A stretch of DNA of 60,248 nucleotides, from NCBI GenBank assembly GCA_015058065.1, contig SVDB01000001.1, positions 1 through 60,248 of the forward strand, given 5' to 3'. A program made the position numbers and the translations under genes. Within the stretch, counting starts at the first letter, position 1. Each line of letters begins with the position of its first letter. Below are positions 33,729 to 60,248 of this stretch, in pieces. The notes below the pieces were generated by a model. The model was not told the DNA's origin. It worked only from the letters and a program-made list of their open reading frames with translations, and did no database searches. This DNA comes from Clostridiales bacterium. Lineage in GTDB: Bacteria > Bacillota > Clostridia > Peptostreptococcales > Anaerovoracaceae.

Positions 33729-36077
33729 CTATCCCAATCCGATCGATAACCCTATAAGGCGTACGATCAGCGCGGCTATCCACGCGATGCAGCACTGGCA
33801 GAGGACCACGTACAGCGCCCAGCCGCCACCAAGTTCTCTTTTTACTGCCGCGACAGCTGCCACACAAGGAGTATAGAGCAGGCTGAACACCAGCATCGAA
33901 GCTGCTTCAAGAGATGTAAGCGCTGCAGCCACGCCTCCGGCGAAGAGAACATTCATCGTTGCCACGACGCTCTCCTTGGCCATAAATCCGCTTATGAGGG
34001 CCGTCACTATGCGCCAGTCTCCCAGCCCTACCGGTTTGAATACAGGAGCCAGAACTCCCGCTATCGCTGCCAGCATGGAATCCTGCGCGTCCGCCACCAT
34101 GTTGAATCCGAAGTCGAAACTCTGCAGGAACCAAACGACTATCGTCGCTATGAGGATCACCGAGAACGCTCTCTGCAGAAAATCCTTGGACTTGTCCCAG
34201 ATGAGATGACCTACGTTCTTGGCTGAAGGCAGCCTGTAGTTAGGAAGCTCCATGACCAGAGGCACCGCCTCGCCTTTGAAGACAGTCTTTTTCATGACTA
34301 TGGCTGACAGGACTCCTGTTACGACTCCGAACAGGTAAAGCGCGGTCACTATCCACCATCCGTTTCCCGGGAAGAACGCCGCCACAAAGAAGCCGTATAT
34401 CGGCAGCTTCGCCGTGCAAGACATGAACGGTGTCAGCAGTATCGTCATCCGCCTGTCTCTGGAACTCGGCAGCGTGCGTGTAGCCATTACGGCAGGCACT
34501 GTGCAGCCGAAGCCTATCAGCATCGGAACGATGCTCCGGCCTGAAAGTCCGATTTTCCTAAGAGGCTTGTCCATAACGAACGCTACTCTTGCTATATACC
34601 CGCTGTCCTCAAGCAGCGACAGGAAGAAGAACATGGTCACGATTATCGGCAGGAAGCTCAGTACGCTTCCTACTCCCTCGAATATTCCGTTCATCACCAG
34701 ACTGCTTATCGCGGGATTCACGTTTCCGGCATTCATTGCGTTTTCTGCAGCCGCGCCCAGAGCTCCGATGCCGTCCTCGAGCAGACCCTGCAGGAACGGT
34801 CCTATGACCGCGAATGTCAGGAAGAACACAGCCGCCATTACCGCGATGAAAACCGGTATGGCAGTGTACTTTCCGGTCAGGACGCTGTCCCACCTACTGC
34901 TCCTGATATGCTCCCTGCTCTCTTTCGGGCGAGTAATGCAGTTATCGCACACCTTATATATAAAGGAGTAGCGCATATCAGCCATCGCGGCGCTCCTGTC
35001 GAGTCCGCGCTCGTTTTCCATCTGCAAAATTATGTGCTCGAGAGTCTCCTTTTCGTTCTGATCGAGTTTAAGAGCGTCAAGGATAAGATGATCGCCTTCG
35101 ATCAGTTTTGCAGCGGCAAAGCGCTCAGGAATTCCGGCTCTTTCGGCGTGGTCTTCTATGAGATGGCCGACCGCGTGCAGGCAGCGATGCACCGCTCCCC
35201 CATGCTCTGTACTGTCGCAGAAATCCTGTCTCATAGGGCCTTCCTGATACTTCGCCACATGGATGGCGTGGCTCACGAGTTCGTCTACGCCCTGGTTCTG
35301 AGAAGCTGATATAGGCACGACTGGCACGCCCAGCATCTGTTCCATCAGGTTGATATCTACAGCGCCGCCATTGCCCGTCATCTCATCCATCATGTTGAGG
35401 GCTACGACCATCGGGAATCCCATCTCGAGCAGCTGCATCGTCAGATACAGGCTGCGGTCGATGCTGGTCACGTCAAGTATGTTTATGATCGCCTTCGGCT
35501 TTTCTTTGAGCACGAAGTCTCGGGAGACTATTTCCTCACCTGAGTAAGGAGACATCGAATAGATACCCGGCAGGTCGGTGATGAGCGTATCCGGATGCCC
35601 CTTTATCATGCCGTCCTTGCGGTCAACAGTAACGCCCGGAAAATTGCCCACGTGCTGGTTTGATCCGGTAAGCTGATTGAACAGCGTCGTTTTGCCGCTG
35701 TTCTGGTTGCCCACGAGTGCGAACGTCAGAGTCGTACCTTCAGGCAGAGGCGCTTCGCCTTTCTTTTCGTGGTACCTGCCCTCTTCGCCCAGACCCGGAT
35801 GCTCTGTCTCGTCTTCGGCCACGCGTTCTTCTACCTGTTCAATGACCTCATCATCTGTCAGCCTGATCACTATCTTGTCAGCGTCAGACAGACGAAGAGT
35901 CAGCTCATACCCATGTATGCGGACCTCCATCGGGTCTCCCATCGGCGCGAATTTTATGAGTTTCACATGCGCTCCGGGGATCACTCCCATGTCGAGCAGA
36001 TGCTGTCTGAGAGCGCCTTTGCCTCCGACCGAACATATATATGCTGATTGCCCCTGTTTTAATTCACTGAGTTTCAT
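33729..36077 (-). CDS. feoB: FeoA-FeoB fusion ferrous iron transporter
   Basis: The N-terminal ~75 aa form a FeoA SH3-like domain (GAHVKLIKFAPMGDPMEV). This is followed by G-domain GNQNSGKTTLFN, DLPG and the FeoB membrane domain. Confidence 0.9.
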   Translation of the reverse strand: MKLSELKQGQSAYICSVGGKGALRQHLLDMGVIPGAHVKLIKFAPMGDPMEVRIHGYELTLRLSDADKIVIRLTDDEVIEQVEERVAEDETEHPGLGEEGRYHEKKGEAPLPEGTTLTFALVGNQNSGKTTLFNQLTGSNQHVGNFPGVTVDRKDGMIKGHPDTLITDLPGIYSMSPYSGEEIVSRDFVLKEKPKAIINILDVTSIDRSLYLTMQLLEMGFPMVVALNMMDEMTGNGGAVDINLMEQMLGVPVVPISASQNQGVDELVSHAIHVAKYQEGPMRQDFCDSTEHGGAVHRCLHAVGHLIEDHAERAGIPERFAAAKLIEGDHLILDALKLDQNEKETLEHIILQMENERGLDRSAAMADMRYSFIYKVCDNCITRPKESREHIRSSRWDSVLTGKYTAIPVFIAVMAAVFFLTFAVIGPFLQGLLEDGIGALGAAAENAMNAGNVNPAISSLVMNGIFEGVGSVLSFLPIIVTMFFFLSLLEDSGYIARVAFVMDKPLRKIGLSGRSIVPMLIGFGCTVPAVMATRTLPSSRDRRMTILLTPFMSCTAKLPIYGFFVAAFFPGNGWWIVTALYLFGVVTGVLSAIVMKKTVFKGEAVPLVMELPNYRLPSAKNVGHLIWDKSKDFLQRAFSVILIATIVVWFLQSFDFGFNMVADAQDSMLAAIAGVLAPVFKPVGLGDWRIVTALISGFMAKESVVATMNVLFAGGVAAALTSLEAASMLVFSLLYTPCVAAVAAVKRELGGGWALYVVLCQCCIAWIAALIVRLIGLSIGLG

Positions 36078-36454: not shown

Positions 36455-38470
36455 TTATGCTGCAGCTCCTGCCTTGGAAGCTTTCTTGTGCAGTGCGTAC
36501 TGCTCGTCGAAGTGCGATCTTACCTTCTTGCCGATCATGACAACGGCAAGCACCATCAGCGCTTCGGCGATCAGCCCCGGCACGAATCCTGCTGCAAGGT
36601 GTCCCTCTGTAAAGAGAGTACCGAACTGATTGATCAGGAACGCTACGGTGTAGCCCGTACAGAGCTGAAGTCCGATAGCTCCCCAGAGCCATCCTCTGCT
36701 CTTCATTTCAGAGTTCATTGCGCCGATAGCCGCGAAGCACGGAGGCGTGTAGAGGTTGAAGAACAGGTACGCCAGCGCTGTCACTGAGGTCAGTCCCATA
36801 GTCATGGCGACCGTGTTGGCTCCGCCCGTCATAGCGAGCTCCTCTGTGTCGATGAAGGCCGTCAGTCCGTAAACTACTGCCAGAGTACCGACAACGTTCT
36901 CCTTCGCGATGAATCCCGTAATGGCTGCAGCTGCGAGCTGCCATACACCGAAGCCAAGCGGTATGAGCAGGATGGCGAACGGCGAAGCGATAGAGGCGAG
37001 GATCGAAGTGTTTTCCGCTCCCTCTTCGACTACATTGAAGTGCCAATCGAAGGTCTGCATGATCTGTACGACCGTATTGCAGATCAGGATGATCGTAGCA
37101 GCCTTGATGATGTATGCCTTAGCGCGCTCCATCATGGATCTGAAAGCGAACTTGAGGCTTGGTGCCTTCCACTTAGGGAGTTCCATGATGAAAAAGGATT
37201 TTCTGTATTTATAGCCCGTAATGCCCTTGATGAGCAGCGCTCCGAGGAAGATCAGCAGGAGTCCGAAGAAGTAACTCAGCAGACTTACCCAGCCGGCTCC
37301 GGCGAAGAACGCTCCCGCGAAGAGAGCGATGACCGGGATCTTGGCTCCGCACGGAATGAATGTTGCGAGCATCGAAGTCGCTCTTCTCTCTCTTTCGTCA
37401 CGGATCGTACGGCAGGCCATGATGGCCGGGATTCCGCAGCCGGTTCCGATGACTACAGGGATGACCGACTTGCCCGACAGACCTACTCTCTTGAAGATAG
37501 GGTCCATGACCGCGCTCACGCGGGCCATGTAGCCGCAGTCTTCAAGAAGAGCGATCAGGAAGTACATCACCATTACGAGAGGCAGGAAACCTACTACAGC
37601 TCCGACTCCGCCGACTATGCCATCAGCAAGCAGCGCGGAAAGGATCGCCGGACTGTTTTCGAGCTGTCCCGCTACCCATCCCTGGAAGGTCTCGATCCAT
37701 CCGACGAGCCAGTCAGCCACGAGAGGTCCGAGCCATGCCTGGGATACCCAGAATACGAACCACATCACAGCCGCGAAAACAAGGATACCGGCGATAGGAT
37801 TCGTCAGCACGGCATCGAGCTTGTCTGACTTCTGGGATTCAGCTGAAAGCACTGTTCTCTTTTCGACATCAGCTACGATATCGTTTACAAAGCTATAGCG
37901 CTTGCGGTCTTCCGCGTCGACTGCGTTCTTGTCATGCAGGTCGATGTCCGCCTGCAGATATGGAGCCTCCTGCGTAGTGCCCGCAAGAGATATGGCCTTC
38001 GCGATCATTTCGCTGAGCCCTTTGTTTTCTGTGGATACCGTTTCGAACACAGGACATCCGAGCTTCGCGGACAGTTTGGTCGCGTCGATCCTCGTGCCCT
38101 CTTTCTCATTGATGTCAGTCTTGTTCAACGCTACTACGACCGGGATGCCAAGTTCGAGAAGCTGAGTGGTAAAGAACAGCGATCTGCTCAGGTTGGTGGC
38201 GTCTACAATGTTTACGATGGCATCCGGATTCGCGGTGCGTACGTACTCACTGGTGATACCCTCTTCCGGTGTGAACGGCGACATCGAATAAGCTCCCGGA
38301 AGGTCTACTGCGATGACTTCCTTGCCACCCGCGTATTCCTTCTTGAGCTGGAACTCTTTACTGCCTACCGTTACGCCGCCCCAGTTGCCGACCTTCTCGC
38401 TCCTGCCCGTAAGAGCATTGTACATTGTGGTCTTGCCGCTGTTAGGATTTCCGGCAAAAGCAATTCTCAT
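36455..38470 (-). CDS. feoB: ferrous iron transport protein B
   Basis: G-domain GNPNSGKTTMYN, DLPG, NKTD, followed by the FeoB gate/membrane domains. GGAGG RBS. Confidence 0.92.
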   Translation of the reverse strand: MRIAFAGNPNSGKTTMYNALTGRSEKVGNWGGVTVGSKEFQLKKEYAGGKEVIAVDLPGAYSMSPFTPEEGITSEYVRTANPDAIVNIVDATNLSRSLFFTTQLLELGIPVVVALNKTDINEKEGTRIDATKLSAKLGCPVFETVSTENKGLSEMIAKAISLAGTTQEAPYLQADIDLHDKNAVDAEDRKRYSFVNDIVADVEKRTVLSAESQKSDKLDAVLTNPIAGILVFAAVMWFVFWVSQAWLGPLVADWLVGWIETFQGWVAGQLENSPAILSALLADGIVGGVGAVVGFLPLVMVMYFLIALLEDCGYMARVSAVMDPIFKRVGLSGKSVIPVVIGTGCGIPAIMACRTIRDERERRATSMLATFIPCGAKIPVIALFAGAFFAGAGWVSLLSYFFGLLLIFLGALLIKGITGYKYRKSFFIMELPKWKAPSLKFAFRSMMERAKAYIIKAATIILICNTVVQIMQTFDWHFNVVEEGAENTSILASIASPFAILLIPLGFGVWQLAAAAITGFIAKENVVGTLAVVYGLTAFIDTEELAMTGGANTVAMTMGLTSVTALAYLFFNLYTPPCFAAIGAMNSEMKSRGWLWGAIGLQLCTGYTVAFLINQFGTLFTEGHLAAGFVPGLIAEALMVLAVVMIGKKVRSHFDEQYALHKKASKAGAAA

Positions 38471-51789: not shown

Positions 51790-53184
51790 ATGAACAATAA
51801 TGACACATCCAAAGGCAACAGGCATATTTTAGCGGCGGCCATGATAACGTCCTTCATGACCACTTTCATGTCGAGCGCGCTCAATCTTTCGGTTCCGTCG
51901 CTCGAAAGTTATTTCGGGGTCAACGCCGCTTTTGTCAGCCTGATCATCAGTTCATACACGATCTCGGTAGCAGCCATGAGTCTGCCGATGGGTAAGATCT
52001 CAGATATAACCAGCCGCAGGATGGTTTTTCTGACCGGTATCGCCGGTTTCGGCATCCTGTCAGCCGCAAGTATTTTCGCGCCATCGATCGTGATCCTTTT
52101 GGTGCTCCGCGCGCTGTCAGGTATTTGCGCAGCCATGATATTCGCTACTAATAACGCTATTCTGATAAGTTCGTTCCCGCATAACGTACAGGGCAAGGTC
52201 CTTGGTTATTCTGTCGCGGCTACATATACAGGTCTTACAGCCGGTCCTGTGGCAGGAGGTCTGCTGAACAGCGCCTTCGGATGGAGATCCATTTTCGCGG
52301 TGTCAGTCATCGTCTCAGCCGCGGCATTTTTCACGGCATTCAGAGCTGTTCCACAGGATACCCCCGCTGCGCATGCTTCCGGAACGGACACTGCCGGCCT
52401 CGCGCTGTACATATCTTCAATAGTTCTCAGTCTGCTCGGAATGACAGGTCTCGGCAGCAATATTGCCGCGCCGTACATGCTCGCGGCAGGGTTGGTCCTT
52501 ATCATCGCCTTCTTTGTTCATGAGTCGAAGCGCGAAAGTGCCGGAAAAAGTTCTGTCATGAGGGTCAGCATGTTCAGGCAAAGCCGGACTTTCACGTTCT
52601 CCAATCTGGCTGCTCTGCTCAATTACGGAGCTACTTTTGCCATCAGTTATGAAATGAGCATTTATCTGCAGGTCATACTCGGCATCCCGTCAGGAAAGGC
52701 CGGTCTGATGCTCGTGACCATGCCCGCGGCGCAGGCCCTTTTGTCACCCATCACCGGAAGTCTTTCCGACCGCGTCAGACCGTCAATACTGGCCAGTACG
52801 GGCATGGGGATATGCGCGCTCACTCTGATGCTTTACTCCCGGATAGACGGGAATACTTCCATATTTTATGTCATGGCTGTGCTGTGCGTGACTGGGATGG
52901 GCTTTGCACTGTTTTCATCTCCCAACACGAATGCCATACTGAGCTGTGTAGGCAAGGAAGACTACGGTGTCGCCAATTCCATAATCGCCACCATGCGCAC
53001 CTACGGGCAGTCATCCGGGATGGCGATCCTCAGCACGATCACCGCGGTCGTACTGGGAAGCGGTACACTTGAAGCATCTCCTCAGGCTGACATACTTCGA
53101 ATGATGCATATATCGTTCATTACGTTCGCGTGTATCTGTCTTCTTGGCCTCTTTTTCTCTCTGGCCCGCGATCGCAGAGCCTGA
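51790..53184 (+). CDS. MFS transporter (14-TM, DHA2/EmrB-like)
   Basis: 14 hydrophobic segments. MFS motif A-like GKISDITSRRMVF. Confidence 0.8.
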   Translation: MNNNDTSKGNRHILAAAMITSFMTTFMSSALNLSVPSLESYFGVNAAFVSLIISSYTISVAAMSLPMGKISDITSRRMVFLTGIAGFGILSAASIFAPSIVILLVLRALSGICAAMIFATNNAILISSFPHNVQGKVLGYSVAATYTGLTAGPVAGGLLNSAFGWRSIFAVSVIVSAAAFFTAFRAVPQDTPAAHASGTDTAGLALYISSIVLSLLGMTGLGSNIAAPYMLAAGLVLIIAFFVHESKRESAGKSSVMRVSMFRQSRTFTFSNLAALLNYGATFAISYEMSIYLQVILGIPSGKAGLMLVTMPAAQALLSPITGSLSDRVRPSILASTGMGICALTLMLYSRIDGNTSIFYVMAVLCVTGMGFALFSSPNTNAILSCVGKEDYGVANSIIATMRTYGQSSGMAILSTITAVVLGSGTLEASPQADILRMMHISFITFACICLLGLFFSLARDRRA

Positions 53185-53192
53185 CTATAAAA

Positions 53193-53218
53193 GGGAGCCT
53201 TGCCGGCTCCCGTTTTTT
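53193..53218 (+). terminator. rho-independent terminator after the MFS gene
   Basis: GGGAGCC-ttgcc-GGCTCCC then GTTTTTTG. Confidence 0.85.
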
Positions 53219-53277
53219 GTTTGATAACAGTGGGCTTTGCTATTAATATGGACATTCTACACACGATCTCGTTGCTG

Positions 53278-53586
53278 TCACGTTATCTGTCTCGCATTCA
53301 TCTTATACTTAGGGTGATACTTAAGGCGCACTGACTGGCCCACTATAAGATCATAGGTCGGGTTGGAAATGACCCCTTCGACTTCTTCTCCATCTTCTGT
53401 CTGATATATTGCGTAATAGATGAATGTGATATCCTCTGTTCCGCCTGAATCCTCGATCCGCGAGATGATTCCTGTGGTTTCGATCCCGTTTTCTTCTATC
53501 TGCTTTTTCATGTTTCGGGATATAAAGATGATAACCGCGCATATCACAATAAATACAGCCCACATGATCACGCCTTTCACACCCAT
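53278..53586 (-). CDS. DUF3592-like small membrane protein
   Basis: One N-terminal TM followed by a beta-rich domain (GIISRIEDSGG...YYAIYQTEDGEE). AAGGAGG RBS. Confidence 0.55.
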   Translation of the reverse strand: MGVKGVIMWAVFIVICAVIIFISRNMKKQIEENGIETTGIISRIEDSGGTEDITFIYYAIYQTEDGEEVEGVISNPTYDLIVGQSVRLKYHPKYKMNARQIT

Positions 53587-53609
53587 TATTGATCCTCCTT
53601 AAAAAGATG

Positions 53610-53876
53610 TCAGTATGTCCTGAATCTGCGCTCGCTTTCGACTGGCGGAATAGCTTTTACATCCATATTCTCTATACGCACAAATGAGCCCCGCTCGATC
53701 GCTATGATCACATTGTCTATCTGTTCCTGTGTCCCCTGGATCTCCATAGACACGGATCCATCCGGTTCATTCCTGACCCAGCCTGTGACACCATAATGAT
53801 CCGCGGCATGTCTGGCCCGATATCTGAATCCAACCCCCTGGACCCATCCTTTGAATATTATGTGTTTGCGCTGCAT
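53610..53876 (-). CDS. acylphosphatase
   Basis: KGWVQGVGFRY and GWVRN motifs. Start at ATG 53876, because the longer track ORF runs through the upstream terminator. Confidence 0.85.
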   Translation of the reverse strand: MQRKHIIFKGWVQGVGFRYRARHAADHYGVTGWVRNEPDGSVSMEIQGTQEQIDNVIIAIERGSFVRIENMDVKAIPPVESERRFRTY

Positions 53877-53945
53877 GATCTTACCTGAATACTGAAATAT
53901 GTTCACATCTTTATGATACCACATCGCTTTGAATCTGCTGCAGAA

Positions 53946-53977
53946 ATAAAAAACGGCTGCGCGTTTCAACAGCCGTC
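53946..53977 (-). terminator. rho-independent terminator closing the ATPase operon
   Basis: The minus strand reads ACGGCUG-10 nt-CAGCCGU then UUUUUAUUU. Confidence 0.7.
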
Positions 53978-54100
53978 TATGGCGGAGCCCTGACATCGAC
54001 ATGTGACCTTAAAAAGACTGGATCGTACAAACGTTGAAATTCCAAAGAGGAAAAGGACCGTCCTCGTTTGTACCCAGAATTGTGCCCAATATTGTATCTG

Positions 54101-54937
54101 CTAGAGCTCTATCGTTTCGGTTTTTATCTCTTTATCATGACTGCAAAGAACAGCTGCACATGCAGTGTCATTTGCTTCCTTTGCGACCCAGCGCAGAGTT
54201 TTGAATTGCAGTGCCGGATCAGCGGCGAATCCCGGTGCTTCCATCTTTTCCCAGCTGCGCGGAGATACGGCAGCGTCCGAAGCCAGAAGCACATACCTCT
54301 CTTTATTTCTGACAATGACTCCGCAAAGCCCGTCTGTATGCCCCGGCATATTCACCATCATGATGCTGCCGTCACCTGTGATATCTATGGCTTTGTTCAT
54401 CGGGCCAAGCAGATGGCCTCTGAAGAACACTCTTTCCGCACCCTCTACATCCCATAGCTGCTCCGGCTGTCTGATACGGTATTTCGTCCTTACCGACCAG
54501 TATGCTTCATCCTCAGGTATCACTATCCTCTTTGCCCGGCTCACCGATCTGAGTCCCGAAACATGATCCGGATCAAGATGTGTAATGAGCACTGCGTCTA
54601 TATCTTCCTGCCTTATACCCATGGATCTCAGCTGTTCATCCACTGCCATGCCCGCAGGTACGTATGGCCTGTACAGCGCGGCCAGGTGCGCGGGCAGAAC
54701 GCTTTTTACAGCTTTGGGATCATAGACTCCATCCGGACTGATATCTCTGCTCCAGCCTGTATCCACAAGAAAAAGCCCTGCCGGATGCTCTATCAGATAT
54801 GAAAACACCGGGAGTGTTACCCGTTTGCGATCGGGAGCCATAACGGCTTTCCGGAAGCCAGTCATTATACTGCCGCCGCCGTACGGCAGATCCTCATGTA
54901 TTCTTATGAACCCGCAATTCAGTATGTGTATTTTCAC
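54101..54937 (-). CDS. MBL-fold metallo-hydrolase
   Basis: THLDPDHVSG (HxHxDH-type motif variant) and downstream His/Asp ligands. The GTG start overlaps the upstream TGA (GTGA). Confidence 0.8.
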   Translation of the reverse strand: MKIHILNCGFIRIHEDLPYGGGSIMTGFRKAVMAPDRKRVTLPVFSYLIEHPAGLFLVDTGWSRDISPDGVYDPKAVKSVLPAHLAALYRPYVPAGMAVDEQLRSMGIRQEDIDAVLITHLDPDHVSGLRSVSRAKRIVIPEDEAYWSVRTKYRIRQPEQLWDVEGAERVFFRGHLLGPMNKAIDITGDGSIMMVNMPGHTDGLCGVIVRNKERYVLLASDAAVSPRSWEKMEAPGFAADPALQFKTLRWVAKEANDTACAAVLCSHDKEIKTETIEL

Positions 54938-55833
54938 AGCAACTTAAGTCCTTTTGTCATAAGCAGGAGTCCCAGGGTGACTATCAGCACCGTGCTGACT
55001 CTCGTGATGTACTTATTATACCTCTTCGGAATGAATTTCCCGAACATTCCGAAAAAGATCATGAGCACGCATGTCCCCATTCCGAATGCGAACATCGAAG
55101 CAGCCCCGGATCTCCAGGAGCCGGAGGCAGCAGCAAACATCCACATAGCCGTCAGCGCTCCGCATGGCATCAGTCCCGTGAGCAGCCCTACAATGACGGG
55201 TCCTCCTCTGAATCTGCATGGCTTTGTCAGTTGAGGGCTGATGCGCCTCAGGAACGGAACGCCCCACATCATAAGTCCGATGATGACAACAAGCAGCCCG
55301 CACATCGTTAGAAGCATGCTTTTGAATTCCGTATCATAGCTAATCACCGTCCCCATGGCGCCGAATACTGCACCGACAATGGTATAACTTATGAGCCTTG
55401 TCCCATTGTACATCAGCGCATTGTTCTGAGTGAGCATTATGCCTCCGCACATGCCTATGCAATGCGCGCCTGTAAGAACACCTATCATGAATAGCAGTCC
55501 AAAGGATGCTCCCCGCTCTGCCTGCGGGATATCTACCATACCGGTAATGACCGGGACAGCAAAATACAGCAGCACTACCGCCGCTGCAGAAATGATGTCT
55601 GACCTTATCCCGCTCTTTCCTTCTCCTGCGGGATAACCGATATCCGACAGTTTCTTTTCTATGCTTTCAGCGCTTATGATATCCGGAGCATACTGAACTA
55701 TGACTTCGCTTTTTCTGTAGCTTGCGTCAGCAGAAAGTACTCCGCGCATGTGTATCAGCGCCTGTGCGATCTCATCCTCGCACTGAGGACAAATCATGCC
55801 GTCGACTCTTTTTCTGAAGGTTTCTCTATCCAT
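54934..55833 (-). CDS. HMA-domain protein fused to a DsbD_2/TauE-like six-TM membrane domain
   Basis: The N-terminal ferredoxin-like HMA domain has GMICPQCE. The membrane part has GAHCIGMCGG. ATG 55833 overlaps the ATPase stop by 8 nt. Confidence 0.7.
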   Translation of the reverse strand: MDRETFRKRVDGMICPQCEDEIAQALIHMRGVLSADASYRKSEVIVQYAPDIISAESIEKKLSDIGYPAGEGKSGIRSDIISAAAVVLLYFAVPVITGMVDIPQAERGASFGLLFMIGVLTGAHCIGMCGGIMLTQNNALMYNGTRLISYTIVGAVFGAMGTVISYDTEFKSMLLTMCGLLVVIIGLMMWGVPFLRRISPQLTKPCRFRGGPVIVGLLTGLMPCGALTAMWMFAAASGSWRSGAASMFAFGMGTCVLMIFFGMFGKFIPKRYNKYITRVSTVLIVTLGLLLMTKGLKLL

Positions 55834-57466
55834 CAACCGCATCCTTCCTCTCAAGCTTTCTTATTCTCAGAGAGTTAAGCAGTACTCCGTTTGAGCTAAG
55901 AGCCATTGCCGCGGCAGCTATTGATGGATTGACGATGCCTGCTGCCGCCAGCGGTATGCATATCACGTTATATATGACCGCCCATGTCAGGTTCTGCCGT
56001 ATGTTCCTTACGGTTTCCCTTGACATACTGAACACGAGAGGCAGCGCGCTGATGTTGCTTCCTGCGATCATCACATCCGCCGCATCGATCGCTATATCGG
56101 TCCCGGTGCCCATGGCTATGCCTGTATCTGCGCAGACCAGAGCAGGAGAATCGTTTATGCCGTCTCCTACCATTGCTATAGTCCGCCCTTCGCTTTGGAG
56201 TTTTCTGATGATGTCGGCTTTGTCTGCCGGCTTGACCTCATACACGACCTTCTCCGGTCCGATGCCCAGCTTCATGGCGGCCGTCTTTGCTTTGGCCTCC
56301 TTGTCGCCGCTTATCATGAACACATCCATGCCGCTCTCCTTAAGAGCTGCGACCATTTCTTCAGCGCCGGGTCTGAGCATCTCATCTTCACCCTCCACGG
56401 TCAGCCCCATGGTGAGCGTTCCCGTTTTATCGAATACGATGGTGTCAGTCTTATAAGCGTTCTCAAGCTGCTCTCCTCCTCGAAACAGAATGCCGAGCTC
56501 TGCTGCCCTCCCTGATCCTGTCATTATCGAAGTCGGCGTTGCAAGGCCAAGAGCGCACGGGCACGCGATCACAAGAGTCGAACAAAGACAGGACACAGCC
56601 TGCCCCATGTTTCCCGGGTCGATCACCCAGTACCAGAGGCAAAAGATTCCTGCGGATATCAAAGTCACTACCGGCACGAATACTGTTGCGATCCTGTCCG
56701 CGAGTCTGGCTATCGGCGCCTTTTCATTCTGAGCGTTGCTTACGATATCTATTATTTGCGCGAGCATCGTTTTCTTTGAGATGTCCTCGCATGAGATCTC
56801 AGCGTGTCCCTCTCTTACCAGCGTGCCGCAATACAGTATATCGCCCGCACCCTTGAACACCGATTCGCTTTCGCCCGTCAGCATGGATTCATCTGTCATA
56901 CACGAGCCTGAAATGATCCTTCCGTCGACCGGTATGTGATCACCGGCTCTGACTGGAATGACATCTGCCTCTGTCAGTTCACTTATCTGTACCTCTGTTT
57001 CTTTTCCCTCACGCAGTACAAATGCTGTTTCCGGTCTGAGTCTTATGAGCCTGCGGATCGCAGCGGAAGCTTCATATCTTGAAGTTGTCTCCATGTACTT
57101 TCCGAAAAGGATCAGCGACAAAAGCACGCATTCCGAAAGGAAATATACTTTAGTATTCTGATGTACAGTGAAAGTGACATATGCGCTGTAAAGGTAGATT
57201 ATCGTAGTCGAAAGAGCTACCAGAAAATCCATTCCCAGAACGCCTTCCTTGAGTGATCTGTACGCACCTCTGTAGAAGTAAGATCCCGGCCAGAACTGAA
57301 CGGCGGTAGCGAACAAGAGCTGTATAAGAGGCCTCATGCCCCACATTAGGGGCATGGTAAGAAGGACGCTCGCGCAGAGCGTCCTTAGAAGCTTCATCCG
57401 CTGATGTATATCACTTTCCTCATCCCCGCAGGCCGGGCATGATATATACAGATCTGACGGATCCAC
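55826..57466 (-). CDS. P1B-type (heavy-metal) ATPase homolog lacking the nucleotide-binding N-domain and the N-terminal HMA domain
   Basis: TGES (aa 197-200), CPC (aa 302-304), DKTGT (aa 346-350), SGD (aa 386-388), GDGIND (aa 434-439). Only ~35 aa separate DKTGT from SGD. GTG start lies 1 nt after the upstream TAA. Confidence 0.8.
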   Translation of the reverse strand: MDPSDLYISCPACGDEESDIHQRMKLLRTLCASVLLTMPLMWGMRPLIQLLFATAVQFWPGSYFYRGAYRSLKEGVLGMDFLVALSTTIIYLYSAYVTFTVHQNTKVYFLSECVLLSLILFGKYMETTSRYEASAAIRRLIRLRPETAFVLREGKETEVQISELTEADVIPVRAGDHIPVDGRIISGSCMTDESMLTGESESVFKGAGDILYCGTLVREGHAEISCEDISKKTMLAQIIDIVSNAQNEKAPIARLADRIATVFVPVVTLISAGIFCLWYWVIDPGNMGQAVSCLCSTLVIACPCALGLATPTSIMTGSGRAAELGILFRGGEQLENAYKTDTIVFDKTGTLTMGLTVEGEDEMLRPGAEEMVAALKESGMDVFMISGDKEAKAKTAAMKLGIGPEKVVYEVKPADKADIIRKLQSEGRTIAMVGDGINDSPALVCADTGIAMGTGTDIAIDAADVMIAGSNISALPLVFSMSRETVRNIRQNLTWAVIYNVICIPLAAAGIVNPSIAAAAMALSSNGVLLNSLRIRKLERKDAVDG

Positions 57467-57467
57467 C

Positions 57468-57971
57468 TTATCTACCTTCTTTCAATTTCTTATACTGTTG
57501 CCAACACTTCCACGAGCAAGGCAGGCAAAATACAGGGATGTGGAACAGGAGCACCCAGCTGAGCCAGTCGACACCCTGATAATACGCTCCGTTATAAGTC
57601 ACGCCTTTCATCAGATCAAAGTATGAGAAGTTCCATACTCCCCAGTTACCCGTGAACGATCCACACAGATGGAGAATCAGGAATGATGCTGTCGTAAAGA
57701 CTCCTGCTACCGAGCCGACTATGCTGGCCGAAGGTCTGCCGCTTTTTGCCAGGAAAAGTGTGATGACCGGCAGCACATAAACAGTCAGATTGAGCACCCA
57801 AAGCGAGATAGGTATCGAGTATCCCCAATTGAGCGCCTGACGGATGTGATCGCCGTCATGAACAAGTATGGCGATGATCATAATGATCGAGCATGTAGTG
57901 ATGGTTTTCGCTATGTCCGCAGGCATCCTTTTGTCGAGAAATCCTGCAGTTTTTTCTTCTCTTCTGGACAT
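57468..57971 (-). CDS. hypothetical four-TM membrane protein, first gene of the ATPase operon
   Basis: 167 aa with GGAGG RBS. It has an HDGDH motif after TM1 and a C-terminal CLPCSWKC. I recognise no family. Confidence 0.55.
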   Translation of the reverse strand: MSRREEKTAGFLDKRMPADIAKTITTCSIIMIIAILVHDGDHIRQALNWGYSIPISLWVLNLTVYVLPVITLFLAKSGRPSASIVGSVAGVFTTASFLILHLCGSFTGNWGVWNFSYFDLMKGVTYNGAYYQGVDWLSWVLLFHIPVFCLPCSWKCWQQYKKLKEGR

Positions 57972-57993
57972 TTAGTAACCTCCGCTTTCTTTT

Positions 57994-58009
57994 TCTACCA
58001 TTTGGTAGA
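57994..58009. promoter_or_regulatory. 16-bp perfect palindrome, candidate TetR operator on the operon side
   Basis: TCTACCA-tt-TGGTAGA lies between a possible minus-strand -10 and the GGAGG RBS of the first operon gene. Confidence 0.6.
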
Positions 58010-58049
58010 TTTAAAATATCACAGGTTTTTCCTATGCGCAATAGTTTTA

Positions 58050-58078
58050 TTGACCGTTTGGTAGAAATAATGTAGAAT
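58050..58078 (+). promoter_or_regulatory. tetR-gene promoter overlapped by a second, imperfect operator copy
   Basis: TTGACC (58050-58055), 17-nt spacer, TAGAAT (58073-58078). TGACCGTTTGGTAGA (58051-58065) shares the TTTGGTAGA half-site. Confidence 0.55.
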
Positions 58079-58109
58079 TTTGTCAGATAGAATCATCGGA
58101 GGTATTTGT

Positions 58110-58691
58110 ATGCCTAAAATCGTAGACAGAGATCAGATGCGCATGGATATCCTTATGGCTTTCCAGCGCTGCATAGACGTAAAACCTATAGATACTATTT
58201 CACTTCGCGATATCGCCTCAGAAGCAAACATGGCCCACCCTACACTTCTCCACTACTTTGGATCGAAGGATGAGCTCATACTTGAGTACGTGAAATATAC
58301 CAGGGAGTATATGACGCAGCACTGCATTGACTGGTTCCTTTCACATCCAAGAAGCAACTATGACTCTAATCTTGCTTACATGAACGCATTCATGCAGTAT
58401 GTCGCTGACGGACAGGCAAATGAATTCAGACCTAATGCGACTACACAGACGTATGTCCTGGGTCATTACAGTGAAGAGATCGGCAGAATGGTCACGGATG
58501 AATTCCGTGAATGGCGGGAAGTCATGGAAAAATGTCTGATTCAGATCTATGGAGAAGAAGCCGGTAAAAACGAAGCTGAAGCCATGATGATCCTCATATC
58601 CGGGACATTCATATGCAACTACAACCGCGCCCTTACCGGCAATATAAATGACAATATAATTGGATATCTCAGCAATCTGGCAAAATCATAA
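58110..58691 (+). CDS. TetR/AcrR-family transcriptional regulator
   Basis: N-terminal HTH ISLRDIASEANMAHPTLLHYFGSKDEL. ATG 58110 follows GGAGG. Confidence 0.88.
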   Translation: MPKIVDRDQMRMDILMAFQRCIDVKPIDTISLRDIASEANMAHPTLLHYFGSKDELILEYVKYTREYMTQHCIDWFLSHPRSNYDSNLAYMNAFMQYVADGQANEFRPNATTQTYVLGHYSEEIGRMVTDEFREWREVMEKCLIQIYGEEAGKNEAEAMMILISGTFICNYNRALTGNINDNIIGYLSNLAKS

Positions 58692-58743
58692 GTTTGTACC
58701 CAATCCAGTTTGAATCCTATGTTGATTATCCACATTCTCTGCC

Positions 58744-60195
58744 TCAAATCATATTATTTTCCCAGAATGCCACGGCATCATTGATCCAGCCTTCCGCATT
58801 TGTCCCTGTCCCAAGACCAAATCCATGCGGCAATCCGGTATAAGAGTGAAACTCTGTCGGAATGCCCATCTCAGACATAGCATCAAGCCTGGCTTTCATC
58901 GTACGCCAGTTTGCGATGCCATCGCTTGTTCCAACAGCGCTGTATGTAGGCGGCTCATATCCTGTCACCTCTGAAAGGCCGGTATAATTAACGATGACAG
59001 CAGCAGGATGCGGATACGCTTTCTCACCAAAGTATTCCGTACCGTAAGTTCCGACCCAGTCTGCCATTCTTCCGCCTGCTGAGCCTCCCCACAGAGAGTA
59101 TCCGCCGGTATCAACTTCCAGTTCTTCCGAATGCTCAAAGATAAAGGCAACAGCTCTCGAAAGGTCTTCGCAGGCAGTCTGCCATCCCGGTCTGTATATC
59201 AGGGCGAAAGCGTTATAGCCTTTCTTCGAAAGTTCAAGTGCATGCGGAAAACTGTCGTGCATCGCGCCAACGTATGCAAAGCCGCCTCCCGCATTGCATA
59301 TCGCAAATTTTGCTCCGGGATCACCCTTAAAGAAGAACAGCCCCGTGTCGTTCTTTGCAGGATCGTCCTTCTTCTCTGTTTCTGAATAGATATCGTAAAA
59401 AATGACGTCCCCACTCTCTGCATGAGCCTTCATATAATTGCAGATCTCGACGGTTTTGTCCGGATCGATGTAGTTGTACCATGTCAGCCTGAGATCACCC
59501 AGAGTACTGCCGCTCATATATCCGCTGTTTACGGGGAATATAAGTCTGCCGTAATCTCCGAACGCAGGATCATTTAAAACGTCTGCTGTCGGGGTTTCTT
59601 TTGAATAGTATTCCTCGATCTCTATATCTTCAAAGAACACCGGCAGCGCATTGTACAGGTATTCCCTTACAGCATCAAAATCATGATATCCCCCATCTTT
59701 CTGATAAAAAACGTAATGATCCGGGGTGAATGTTTCATTGCGCGACAGCATCTCATTTGCCATATCGATGCTCTGACTCTTCACTCCGTCTTTCGTTCCG
59801 ACTGCATGATAGATAAAGTACCCGCGCTCATCGAGATCGTTGTCCTTTACAAGCTGCTCTATGAAGTCTACGTTCTTTTCTATCTGAAAATCTCCGTATC
59901 CGCCGTAATACCAGCTGGAGCCGCTCATCGGGAGAAAGTATCTTATGTAATCATAGTCGTAGCAGAACTCAAGCCAGGTCGTAACAGATCCCAGCGAGAA
60001 TCCGCCAAACGCCCGGTGATCTCTCGATGCTTTCAGATCCTCATCTGAGACCGATCTCGCGTAAGTATGGTATTTACCTTCGACCGCCGGCATCAGATCA
60101 TTCTCGAAGTCCTGATGGAACGCCCTGAATGCTCTTACCGAACTGCCAAAATCCGTCCCGGTAAAGTCATTATAGACAATATGAAGTGACCTCAC
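58744..60195 (-). CDS. two-domain esterase (esterase-family domain plus alpha/beta-hydrolase fold-3 domain), 5' end uncertain
   Basis: Two nucleophile elbows are present: GFSLGS (N-terminal half) and GGSAGG (C-terminal half). The ORF begins at a GTG only 7 codons after an in-frame TAA, 53 nt from the window edge. Confidence 0.7.
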   Translation of the reverse strand: MRSLHIVYNDFTGTDFGSSVRAFRAFHQDFENDLMPAVEGKYHTYARSVSDEDLKASRDHRAFGGFSLGSVTTWLEFCYDYDYIRYFLPMSGSSWYYGGYGDFQIEKNVDFIEQLVKDNDLDERGYFIYHAVGTKDGVKSQSIDMANEMLSRNETFTPDHYVFYQKDGGYHDFDAVREYLYNALPVFFEDIEIEEYYSKETPTADVLNDPAFGDYGRLIFPVNSGYMSGSTLGDLRLTWYNYIDPDKTVEICNYMKAHAESGDVIFYDIYSETEKKDDPAKNDTGLFFFKGDPGAKFAICNAGGGFAYVGAMHDSFPHALELSKKGYNAFALIYRPGWQTACEDLSRAVAFIFEHSEELEVDTGGYSLWGGSAGGRMADWVGTYGTEYFGEKAYPHPAAVIVNYTGLSEVTGYEPPTYSAVGTSDGIANWRTMKARLDAMSEMGIPTEFHSYTGLPHGFGLGTGTNAEGWINDAVAFWENNMI

Positions 60196-60248
60196 ATTTG
60201 TAGGAACGCGGATTTACCCGTATACTGAAGTTGCAACCACACAACTCA

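Follow-up and report, generated by a model that had tools for sequence, protein, structure and literature searches.

P-type ATPases are defined by ATP-driven autophosphorylation, and to our knowledge every characterised member has a nucleotide-binding (N) domain. Among the P1B pumps, the residue pair YN and the motif MxxSS form the signature of the P1B-1 subgroup in the established classification. A conserved P-type pump without an ATP-binding domain is unexpected for specialists, and its energy coupling is directly testable. Here we describe a family of such proteins, starting from a locus of a Clostridiales bacterium of the Anaerovoracaceae (GCA_015058065.1, contig SVDB01000001.1, positions 1 to 60,248 of the forward strand; this whole stretch of 60,248 nucleotides is referred to as the window). 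The locus comprises four head-to-tail minus-strand open reading frames (ORFs), encoding a small membrane protein that we call X, a P-type ATPase of 546 residues, a protein in which an HMA domain is fused to a DsbD_2 membrane domain (HMA-DsbD_2), and a hydrolase of the metallo-β-lactamase (MBL) fold, together with a divergent gene for a TetR-family regulator (Table 1). All five ORFs lie at the coordinates given in an earlier description of the locus made from the sequence alone (the original prediction).

The P1B landmarks originally listed for the 546-residue protein, TGES, CPC, DKTGT, SGD and GDGIND, are all present. The actuator (A) domain carries TGES197-200 and matches the Pfam family E1-E2_ATPase over residues 143-323 (7.5e-48). 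The phosphorylation (P) domain, of the haloacid dehalogenase (HAD) fold, carries D346KTGT, SGD386-388 (SGDK386-389 with the following lysine), K416 and GDGIND434-439, and the set DKTGT, SGD, K and GDGIND is invariant in a multiple alignment of the short ATPases with full-length relatives (alignment A1). The transmembrane metal site consists of CPC302-304 in M4, YN499-500 in M5 and MALSS521-525, an MxxSS motif, in M6.

The segment following the phosphorylated aspartate is different. Only the distal part of the Pfam HAD Hydrolase model was matched (residues 361-447), and the match to NCBIfam TIGR01525 was split in two, the first part joining residues 79-354 of the query to positions 1-262 of a 560-position profile. 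Alignment with Legionella pneumophila CopA (3rfu) revealed the missing segment that had been proposed: the match is continuous up to DKTGTLTxG, where query residue ~355 pairs with CopA residue ~435, and resumes at CopA residue ~550, so that ~110 residues are missing. The distance from D346 to G434 is 88 residues, as counted originally, against 195-200 in full-length relatives bearing SEHP. In alignment A1 the short ATPases share one clean gap of ~113 columns (~500-617), between DKTGTLTxG and xxLRPxA. The SEHP motif was not found in the protein, and the N-domain of ~110 residues with SEHP and GxG that marks P1B-1 ATPases is absent. The in-frame junction, originally placed at ~56381-56413, is moved slightly by the alignment (Table 1). 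An AlphaFold2 model (pLDDT 78, pTM 0.70; pLDDT ~68 at the junction) has the eight-helix membrane topology and overall fold of P1B-1 pumps, and superposes on CopA and ATP7B, the top Foldseek matches, with TM-scores of 0.79-0.82 normalised to the query and 0.66-0.68 normalised to the target. These results confirm that the ORF encodes a CopA-type P1B-1 ATPase without the nucleotide-binding domain.

The N-terminal HMA domain had also been reported absent. The domain itself is gone, but a CxxC remnant (SCPAC, with CPAC10-13) is retained, which in A1 falls opposite the CxxC that full-length relatives carry in their first HMA domain; HMA domains are common, not universal, in P1B-1 ATPases. The alignments are best explained by a clean excision of the N-domain from the hinge of the P-domain, together with reduction of the N-terminal HMA domains to a CxxC peptide. 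In one group of near-identical short ATPases (P0044 and P0048-P0056, relatives of P0034), the former N-domain junction holds a low-complexity tandem repeat of the type GTDGPAKGLAES.... As this repeat is variable in length, with D-to-GDG distances of 96-178 residues, the junction loop appears to tolerate long, probably disordered insertions.

A search for orthologues found the short form across relatives and not only in this assembly. About 90 of the best 120 database clusters had a short D-to-GDG spacing of 79-91 residues, at identities from 100% down to 52%, and several of these clusters were large, with 6507, 1614 and 1117 members. Four metagenome-assembled genomes (MAGs) of goat gut and rumen origin, two assigned to Mogibacterium, one to Anaerovoracaceae and one to 'Clostridiales', encode the same form at 88-97% identity. 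Pairwise ratios of non-synonymous to synonymous substitution (dN/dS) against these four relatives were 0.07-0.14 for the ATPase, 0.02-0.05 for X and 0.07-0.20 for HMA-DsbD_2, showing that the short ATPase is under purifying selection and selectively maintained. Broad conservation and low dN/dS support the original suggestion of a naturally N-domain-less protein.

All N-domain-less lineages, including distant ones, keep DKTGT, CPC, GDGxND, YN and MxxSS, and nearly all keep TGES and (S/T)GD, P0318 and P0304 each missing one of these two patterns. Directly after (T/S)GD, 90 of 94 N-domain-less sequences have Lys or Arg; of 162 full-length sequences, 20 have Lys or Arg there and 104 have Asn. Two apparent exceptions to the conserved picture were set aside. 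Cluster 'members' of 300 residues, considered as evidence of decay, proved to be the neighbouring HMA-DsbD_2 protein. P0080 and P0093 (660-664 residues, with an N-domain), considered as full-length close relatives, are chimeras, either recombinant or from assembly: their N-terminal ~430 residues match P0019 of the short family, and the C-terminal part consists of an N-domain and a different M5/M6 without YN or MxxSS.

Apart from the stand-alone loci L018 and L024, every related locus with flanks read has a homologue of X (166-191 residues) directly upstream of the ATPase gene and, except at L022, which is disrupted by an insertion sequence, HMA-DsbD_2 directly downstream. The proposed four-gene order therefore holds in part: X, ATPase and HMA-DsbD_2, with TetR, form a conserved module, and the MBL gene is absent or elsewhere in many relatives. 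The window, L009-L012, L004 and L016 have this gene, which is divergent in L004 and L016, and L001, L007, L013, L014, L020 and L023 lack it. The module also occurs with full-length ATPases of 776-784 residues, P0112 in L013 and P0079 in L014, each with a pair of HMA domains, an SEHP-bearing N-domain and TGDN. An intermediate, P0301 in L016, has lost the N-domain and kept its HMA domains. An HMA domain had been described as fused to the DsbD_2 protein instead of to the ATPase. This domain has not been relocated, since the same fusion accompanies the two-HMA ATPase of L013; given the full-length module ATPases and the P0301 intermediate, it is an ancestral feature of the module and not compensation for a lost ATPase HMA domain. 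At L022 (Anaerovirgula multivorans, GCA_900188145.1; 4275-7617), Y2_Tnp/Y1_Tnp transposase genes split the TetR-X-ATPase module after the HMA region of the ATPase, and at L004 (9225-9776) and L016 (8989-11998) the module adjoins genes for TnpV, DUF6809 and a phage-type integrase, which suggests that it is carried on integrative mobile elements in some relatives.

Loss of the N-domain is not confined to one lineage. An exhaustive search gave eight N-domain-less proteins among the best 150 of the 50%-identity representatives. Two N-domain-less representatives that were checked are module members, P0301 and P0304, the latter encoded in a MAG of the Atopobiaceae (L023). Neither X nor DsbD_2 accompanies P0355 or P0345, and these stand-alone lineages share Lys or Arg after (T/S)GD. 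The originally proposed partnership with HMA-DsbD_2 is thus not a general requirement of the N-domain-less state, since at least one such lineage, P0355, is found alone. P0355 itself has 715 residues with HMA domains at both ends, was seen on eight contigs (L018/L019, 5001-7148), and lies in a context unrelated to the module (EF-P, peptidase M28, DUF4369). In bootstrapped neighbour-joining trees a module superclade was separated from other CopAs (99.5%), with P0355 and P0444 outside it (92.5%); the order of two short groups and the full-length group inside the module clade was left unresolved. Because P0355 and P0444 fall outside the superclade, and N-domain-less forms occur outside the module, the trees show that the N-domain has been lost independently at least twice.

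What, then, phosphorylates the aspartate in a large family that has deleted the N-domain and kept the residues for phosphorylation, dephosphorylation and ion binding? We know of no role for DKTGT, (T/S)GD, the P-domain lysine, GDGxND and TGES other than forming and hydrolysing the aspartyl-phosphate. Since these residues and those of the Cu(I) site are retained and invariant, the ATPase most likely still runs an E1P/E2P cycle in which Cu(I) would be moved outward. As the adenine pocket is gone and no N-domain-like gene was found in the window or in the fetched flanks of short ATPase genes, the donor is probably a small phosphoryl compound. Acetyl phosphate, which is abundant in fermentative anaerobes, would be the leading candidate for phosphorylating D346; other small acyl or pyrophosphate compounds, or ATP weakly bound by the P-domain alone, are alternative donors. 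Binding of the donor may be aided by the Lys or Arg found after (T/S)GD in place of the usual Asn. There is precedent for dispensing with the N-domain site when the donor is small: H,K-ATPase whose N-domain ATP site was blocked with fluorescein isothiocyanate (FITC) lost ATPase activity and retained hydrolysis of acetyl phosphate and p-nitrophenyl phosphate (PMC4215238), and Na,K-ATPase was phosphorylated by acetyl phosphate (PMC2217063). Within the module, the membrane-tethered cytosolic HMA domain of the DsbD_2 protein may deliver Cu(I) to the ATPase, X may act at its exit side, and the dedicated TetR repressor would bind the TnACCAnnnGGTnA palindrome at the module promoter. Taken as a whole, a natural module pump, still phosphorylated at D346 by a donor that does not need the N-domain and moving Cu(I) outward, is our tentative best explanation, which we hold to be nearly as probable as all others together. 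A stronger version, in which these are the first P-type primary pumps to run on a non-nucleotide donor (acetyl phosphate, another acyl phosphate or pyrophosphate), with X and HMA-DsbD_2 as obligate partners for entry and exit, is doubtful.

Several observations weigh against a working pump of this kind. The identities of the phosphoryl donor and of the ion, and the direction in which this ion is moved, are all inferred. Repeated loss of the N-domain within the module could mean that catalysis is dispensable there. Lys or Arg after (T/S)GD is not universal, the residue being V, S and E in P0304, P0305 and P0318 respectively. The regulator resembles RamR-type sensors of organic ligands and not known copper sensors, so that copper is at most a putative inducer. 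Finally, the P0037 lineage includes many rare, low-abundance singleton variants (P0059-P0066, P0072, P0073, P0075 and P0081-P0096; 93-98% identical to P0037, mostly 96-98%) in which differing internal stretches of 8-63 residues are deleted in frame, in some cases taking out DKTGT or the CPC helix; these variants may be rare decayed alleles or assembly artefacts.

Some of the same observations would fit a protein that does not cycle at all, but serves as a scaffold or relay, that is, as a membrane adaptor that binds Cu(I), as a gate or as a passive conduit for X and for HMA-DsbD_2, the latter being the real transporter (presumably a secondary carrier of the LysE-superfamily type). Losses of the N-domain were multiple and for the most part fall within this module, the module always has a second candidate metal transporter with its own HMA domain, and variants without DKTGT exist, if rarely. 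However, DKTGT, (S/T)GD, K416, GDGxND and TGES are invariant or nearly so over more than 45% divergence and in independent lineages, the dN/dS range given above applies to the whole ATPase gene, and these motifs also persist in an N-domain-less lineage that occurs by itself, with neither X nor DsbD_2. Motif conservation thus favours a working phosphoenzyme, and we regard a non-cycling protein as rather unlikely, though it deserves serious consideration.

If the ATPase does form a phosphoenzyme, ATP could still be the donor, bound with low affinity by the P-domain alone and aided by the basic residue after (S/T)GD. The ligands of the γ-phosphate and of Mg in P-type ATPases sit in the P-domain, and a basic residue is enriched at precisely the position following TGD. 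Against this, the adenine- and ribose-binding residues of P1B N-domains (the His of SEHP, and GxG) are all absent, and blocking the N-domain site abolishes the ATPase activity of H,K-ATPase (PMC4215238). We consider ATP an unlikely donor.

An N-domain might also be supplied in trans, by a separately encoded nucleotide-binding protein that docks on the P-domain and restores ATP-driven pumping. A hidden Markov model built from 154 CopA N-domains was run against six-frame ORFs of the 60-kb window and 19 loci. It gave no match in the window or in the flanks of short ATPase genes, and detected the N-domains of two full-length controls at 1e-29 to 1e-30. This search, which covered only the window and the fetched locus flanks, thus yielded no direct support; nor does the module conserve any soluble protein, its MBL hydrolase being optional. 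A trans-acting N-domain encoded elsewhere in the genome would count against a pump running on a small donor, but we think it improbable. Lastly, that this is a recently crippled pseudogene or an assembly artefact, as originally considered, has only the unusual architecture in its favour and can be rejected as scarcely credible, because some 90 clusters share the form down to 52% identity, four independent MAGs carry it and dN/dS is about 0.1; moreover, the motifs are kept, the junction preserves the reading frame and the operon has stayed intact.

The translational coupling originally proposed, and the divergent TetR gene, were borne out by direct reading of the sequence and by the TetR_N match. 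X and the ATPase are joined by TAAgGTG (57470-57464), the ATPase and HMA-DsbD_2 by an 8-nt overlap, ATGGATAG (55833-55826), and HMA-DsbD_2 and the hydrolase by GTGA (54937-54934).

Table 1. Features of the N-domain-less ATPase locus and its surroundings, in window coordinates
Feature	Position	Strand	Evidence and remarks
X, 167-aa four-helix membrane protein	57468..57971	-	No family; alignment A2, AlphaFold2
N-domain-less P1B-1-type (CopA-like) P-type ATPase, 546 aa	55826..57466	-	Motifs, Pfam, NCBIfam, alignment, AlphaFold2
In-frame N-domain junction, residues ~355-363, LTVEGEDEM	56378..56404	-	A1 columns 500-617; HMM and PDB alignments
HMA (GMICPQCE) and six-helix DsbD_2/TauE-like membrane protein, 299 aa	54934..55833	-	Pfam; ATG overlaps ATPase stop
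MBL-fold hydrolase, lactonase-like, optional module member	54101..54937	-	Pfam Lactamase_B
TetR-family regulator, 193 aa from conserved MPKIV start	58110..58691	+	TetR_N 2.2e-9; open from TTG 58080
Operator-like perfect palindrome TCTACCAAATGGTAGA	57994..58009		Operon promoter; conserved in relatives
Operator-like site 2, TTGACCGTTTGGTAGA on + strand	58050..58065		Overlaps -35 of predicted tetR promoter
Intrinsic-terminator-like hairpin and T-run	53951..53978	-	~120 nt past MBL stop
Acylphosphatase	53610-53879, ORF open to 54002	-	PF00708, 1.3e-21; directly beyond operon terminator

The protein at the head of the operon is, as predicted, a four-helix membrane protein without a family match. 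Neither Pfam nor NCBIfam matched X, Pfam at E <= 1 over 29 members of the family gave nothing, and Foldseek found no fold match in the PDB. Its homologues fall into about 200 clusters, all unnamed. Across the family the mean column identity is 58%, and H38-D39-x-D41-H42 (HDxDH), R44, H101, WGxWN and YQGxD are invariant in alignment A2. The AlphaFold2 model (pLDDT 89.9) is a four-helix membrane protein whose His/Asp cluster and aromatic loop would face outward according to the positive-inside rule.

The HMA-DsbD_2 fusion scored well above the Pfam cut-offs for both of its parts, with 118.7 bits for DsbD_2 (cut-off 24.9) and 35.4 bits for HMA (cut-off 24.8). Its transmembrane helices carry HCxGMCGG (here HCIGMCGG) and MPCG, and its 452 homologues bear source names of the kind 'sulfite exporter TauE/SafE / copper chaperone CopZ'. 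The Lactamase_B match upheld the assignment of the last gene to the MBL fold. Its motif is HLDPDH and not the canonical HxHxDH, and its PDB relatives are acyl-homoserine lactone (AHL) lactonases and 4-pyridoxolactonase. Assignment to the quorum-quenching lactonases or pyridoxolactonases was not supported, as HxHxDH is lacking and all NCBIfam lactonase matches fell far below their equivalog cut-offs (best 79.5 bits against 390); only the general fold can be assigned.

Loci L001, L004, L013, L015, L016 and L022 encode an orthologue of the 193-residue TetR protein next to the module (58-75% identity), and such genes are usually adjacent to it, divergent or downstream. Four cysteines are conserved over this range (QRC, H/K-C, E-K/Q-C and F-I/L-CNYN), an uncommon feature for a TetR protein that hints at sensing of metals or thiols. 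Among solved structures, those nearest to the regulator belong to RamR-like sensors of organic ligands. The protein combines an N-terminal TetR helix-turn-helix domain with promoter-overlapping palindromes that are conserved in relatives and are predicted operators. The TCTACCAAATGGTAGA site follows closely on an extended -10-like TGtGATATT, and the start codon of X comes ~22 nt after it. L009 and L012 conserve the motif, L011 has a near-identical copy, and variants of it occur in L004, L013, L014 and L015. The related sites upstream of X in these last four loci are of the form TnACCAnnnGGTnA, and in divergent loci this palindrome falls just past the -10 of the X promoter. The tetR promoter itself was predicted by a promoter scan as TTGACC-17-TAGAAT (58050-58078).

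The hairpin beyond the MBL gene is probably the end of the operon. Acylphosphatases hydrolyse acetyl phosphate and P-type ATPase phosphoenzymes, and a functional link to the acylphosphatase gene that follows was considered. It was rejected: the adjacency is probably a coincidence, since the gene lies past the terminator and is missing from every related locus, including L009, which is 97% identical. An Rfam scan of 53000-60248 gave no match. Elsewhere in the window, ~380 nt apart on the minus strand, are two ferrous-iron transporter genes, encoding one FeoA-FeoB fusion (33729-36077; 782 residues) and one FeoB (36455-38470; 671 residues) in the pair.

If the donor is indeed a small acyl phosphate, these ATPases would represent a new mode of energy coupling for primary transport, and, with acetyl phosphate or a similar compound as donor, metal efflux in strict anaerobes would draw directly on the acetyl-phosphate pool. 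The short ATPases would also provide a minimal P-type core for structural and mechanistic work. X, HMA-DsbD_2 and the Cys-rich TetR would make up a further copper-handling module, common among gut and rumen Clostridia and so far unannotated; the current annotation of its ATPases as ordinary 'Cu2+-exporting ATPases' hides the loss of the N-domain. No account of a P-type ATPase without an N-domain, or of an X/HMA-DsbD_2/TetR module, turned up in a full-text literature search, coverage being incomplete and the result an absence of evidence only.

The closest described systems are the CopA-type P1B-1 pumps for Cu(I) and Ag(I), represented by L. pneumophila CopA (3rfu, 4bbj) and Archaeoglobus fulgidus CopA (7r0g). 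The short ATPase shares with them the eight-helix core, the A- and P-domain motifs and CPC, YN and MxxSS, at 30-32% identity and a TM-score of ~0.8 over the query. Unlike them, it has no N-domain (~110 residues, with SEHP and GxG), has its HMA domain reduced to CxxC, and has Lys for Asn after TGD; its gene belongs to the X/HMA-DsbD_2/TetR module, whereas those of CopA-type pumps are found in operons with CopY, CsoR or CueR and CopZ. It thus lacks one defining P-type feature and is a new architectural variant, CopA-type by sequence and fold. Nearer still are the full-length ATPases of the module, P0112 and P0079, which are 56-58% identical to it over the shared regions and lie behind the same operator motif. 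Their loci have the same X and DsbD_2 flanks (HMA was detected in L013), with a TetR orthologue beside L013 and none seen beside L014; they differ from the short form in their two HMA domains, SEHP-bearing N-domain and TGDN. In the HAD fold the N-domain of P-type ATPases occupies the position of the C1 cap, and its removal leaves a core resembling that of the cap-less C0 members. The likeness is to the bare HAD core and is one of resemblance only, for in the short ATPase this core stays wired to the A-domain and membrane domain of a transporter. X, for its part, recalls the small-subunit partners of other pumps (CcoS/FixS with CcoI, KdpF, FXYD and sarcolipin) in being small, membrane-bound and translationally coupled upstream of the pump, but is set apart from them by its four helices, its invariant and probably extracytoplasmic His/Asp cluster, and a sequence and fold that match none of theirs.

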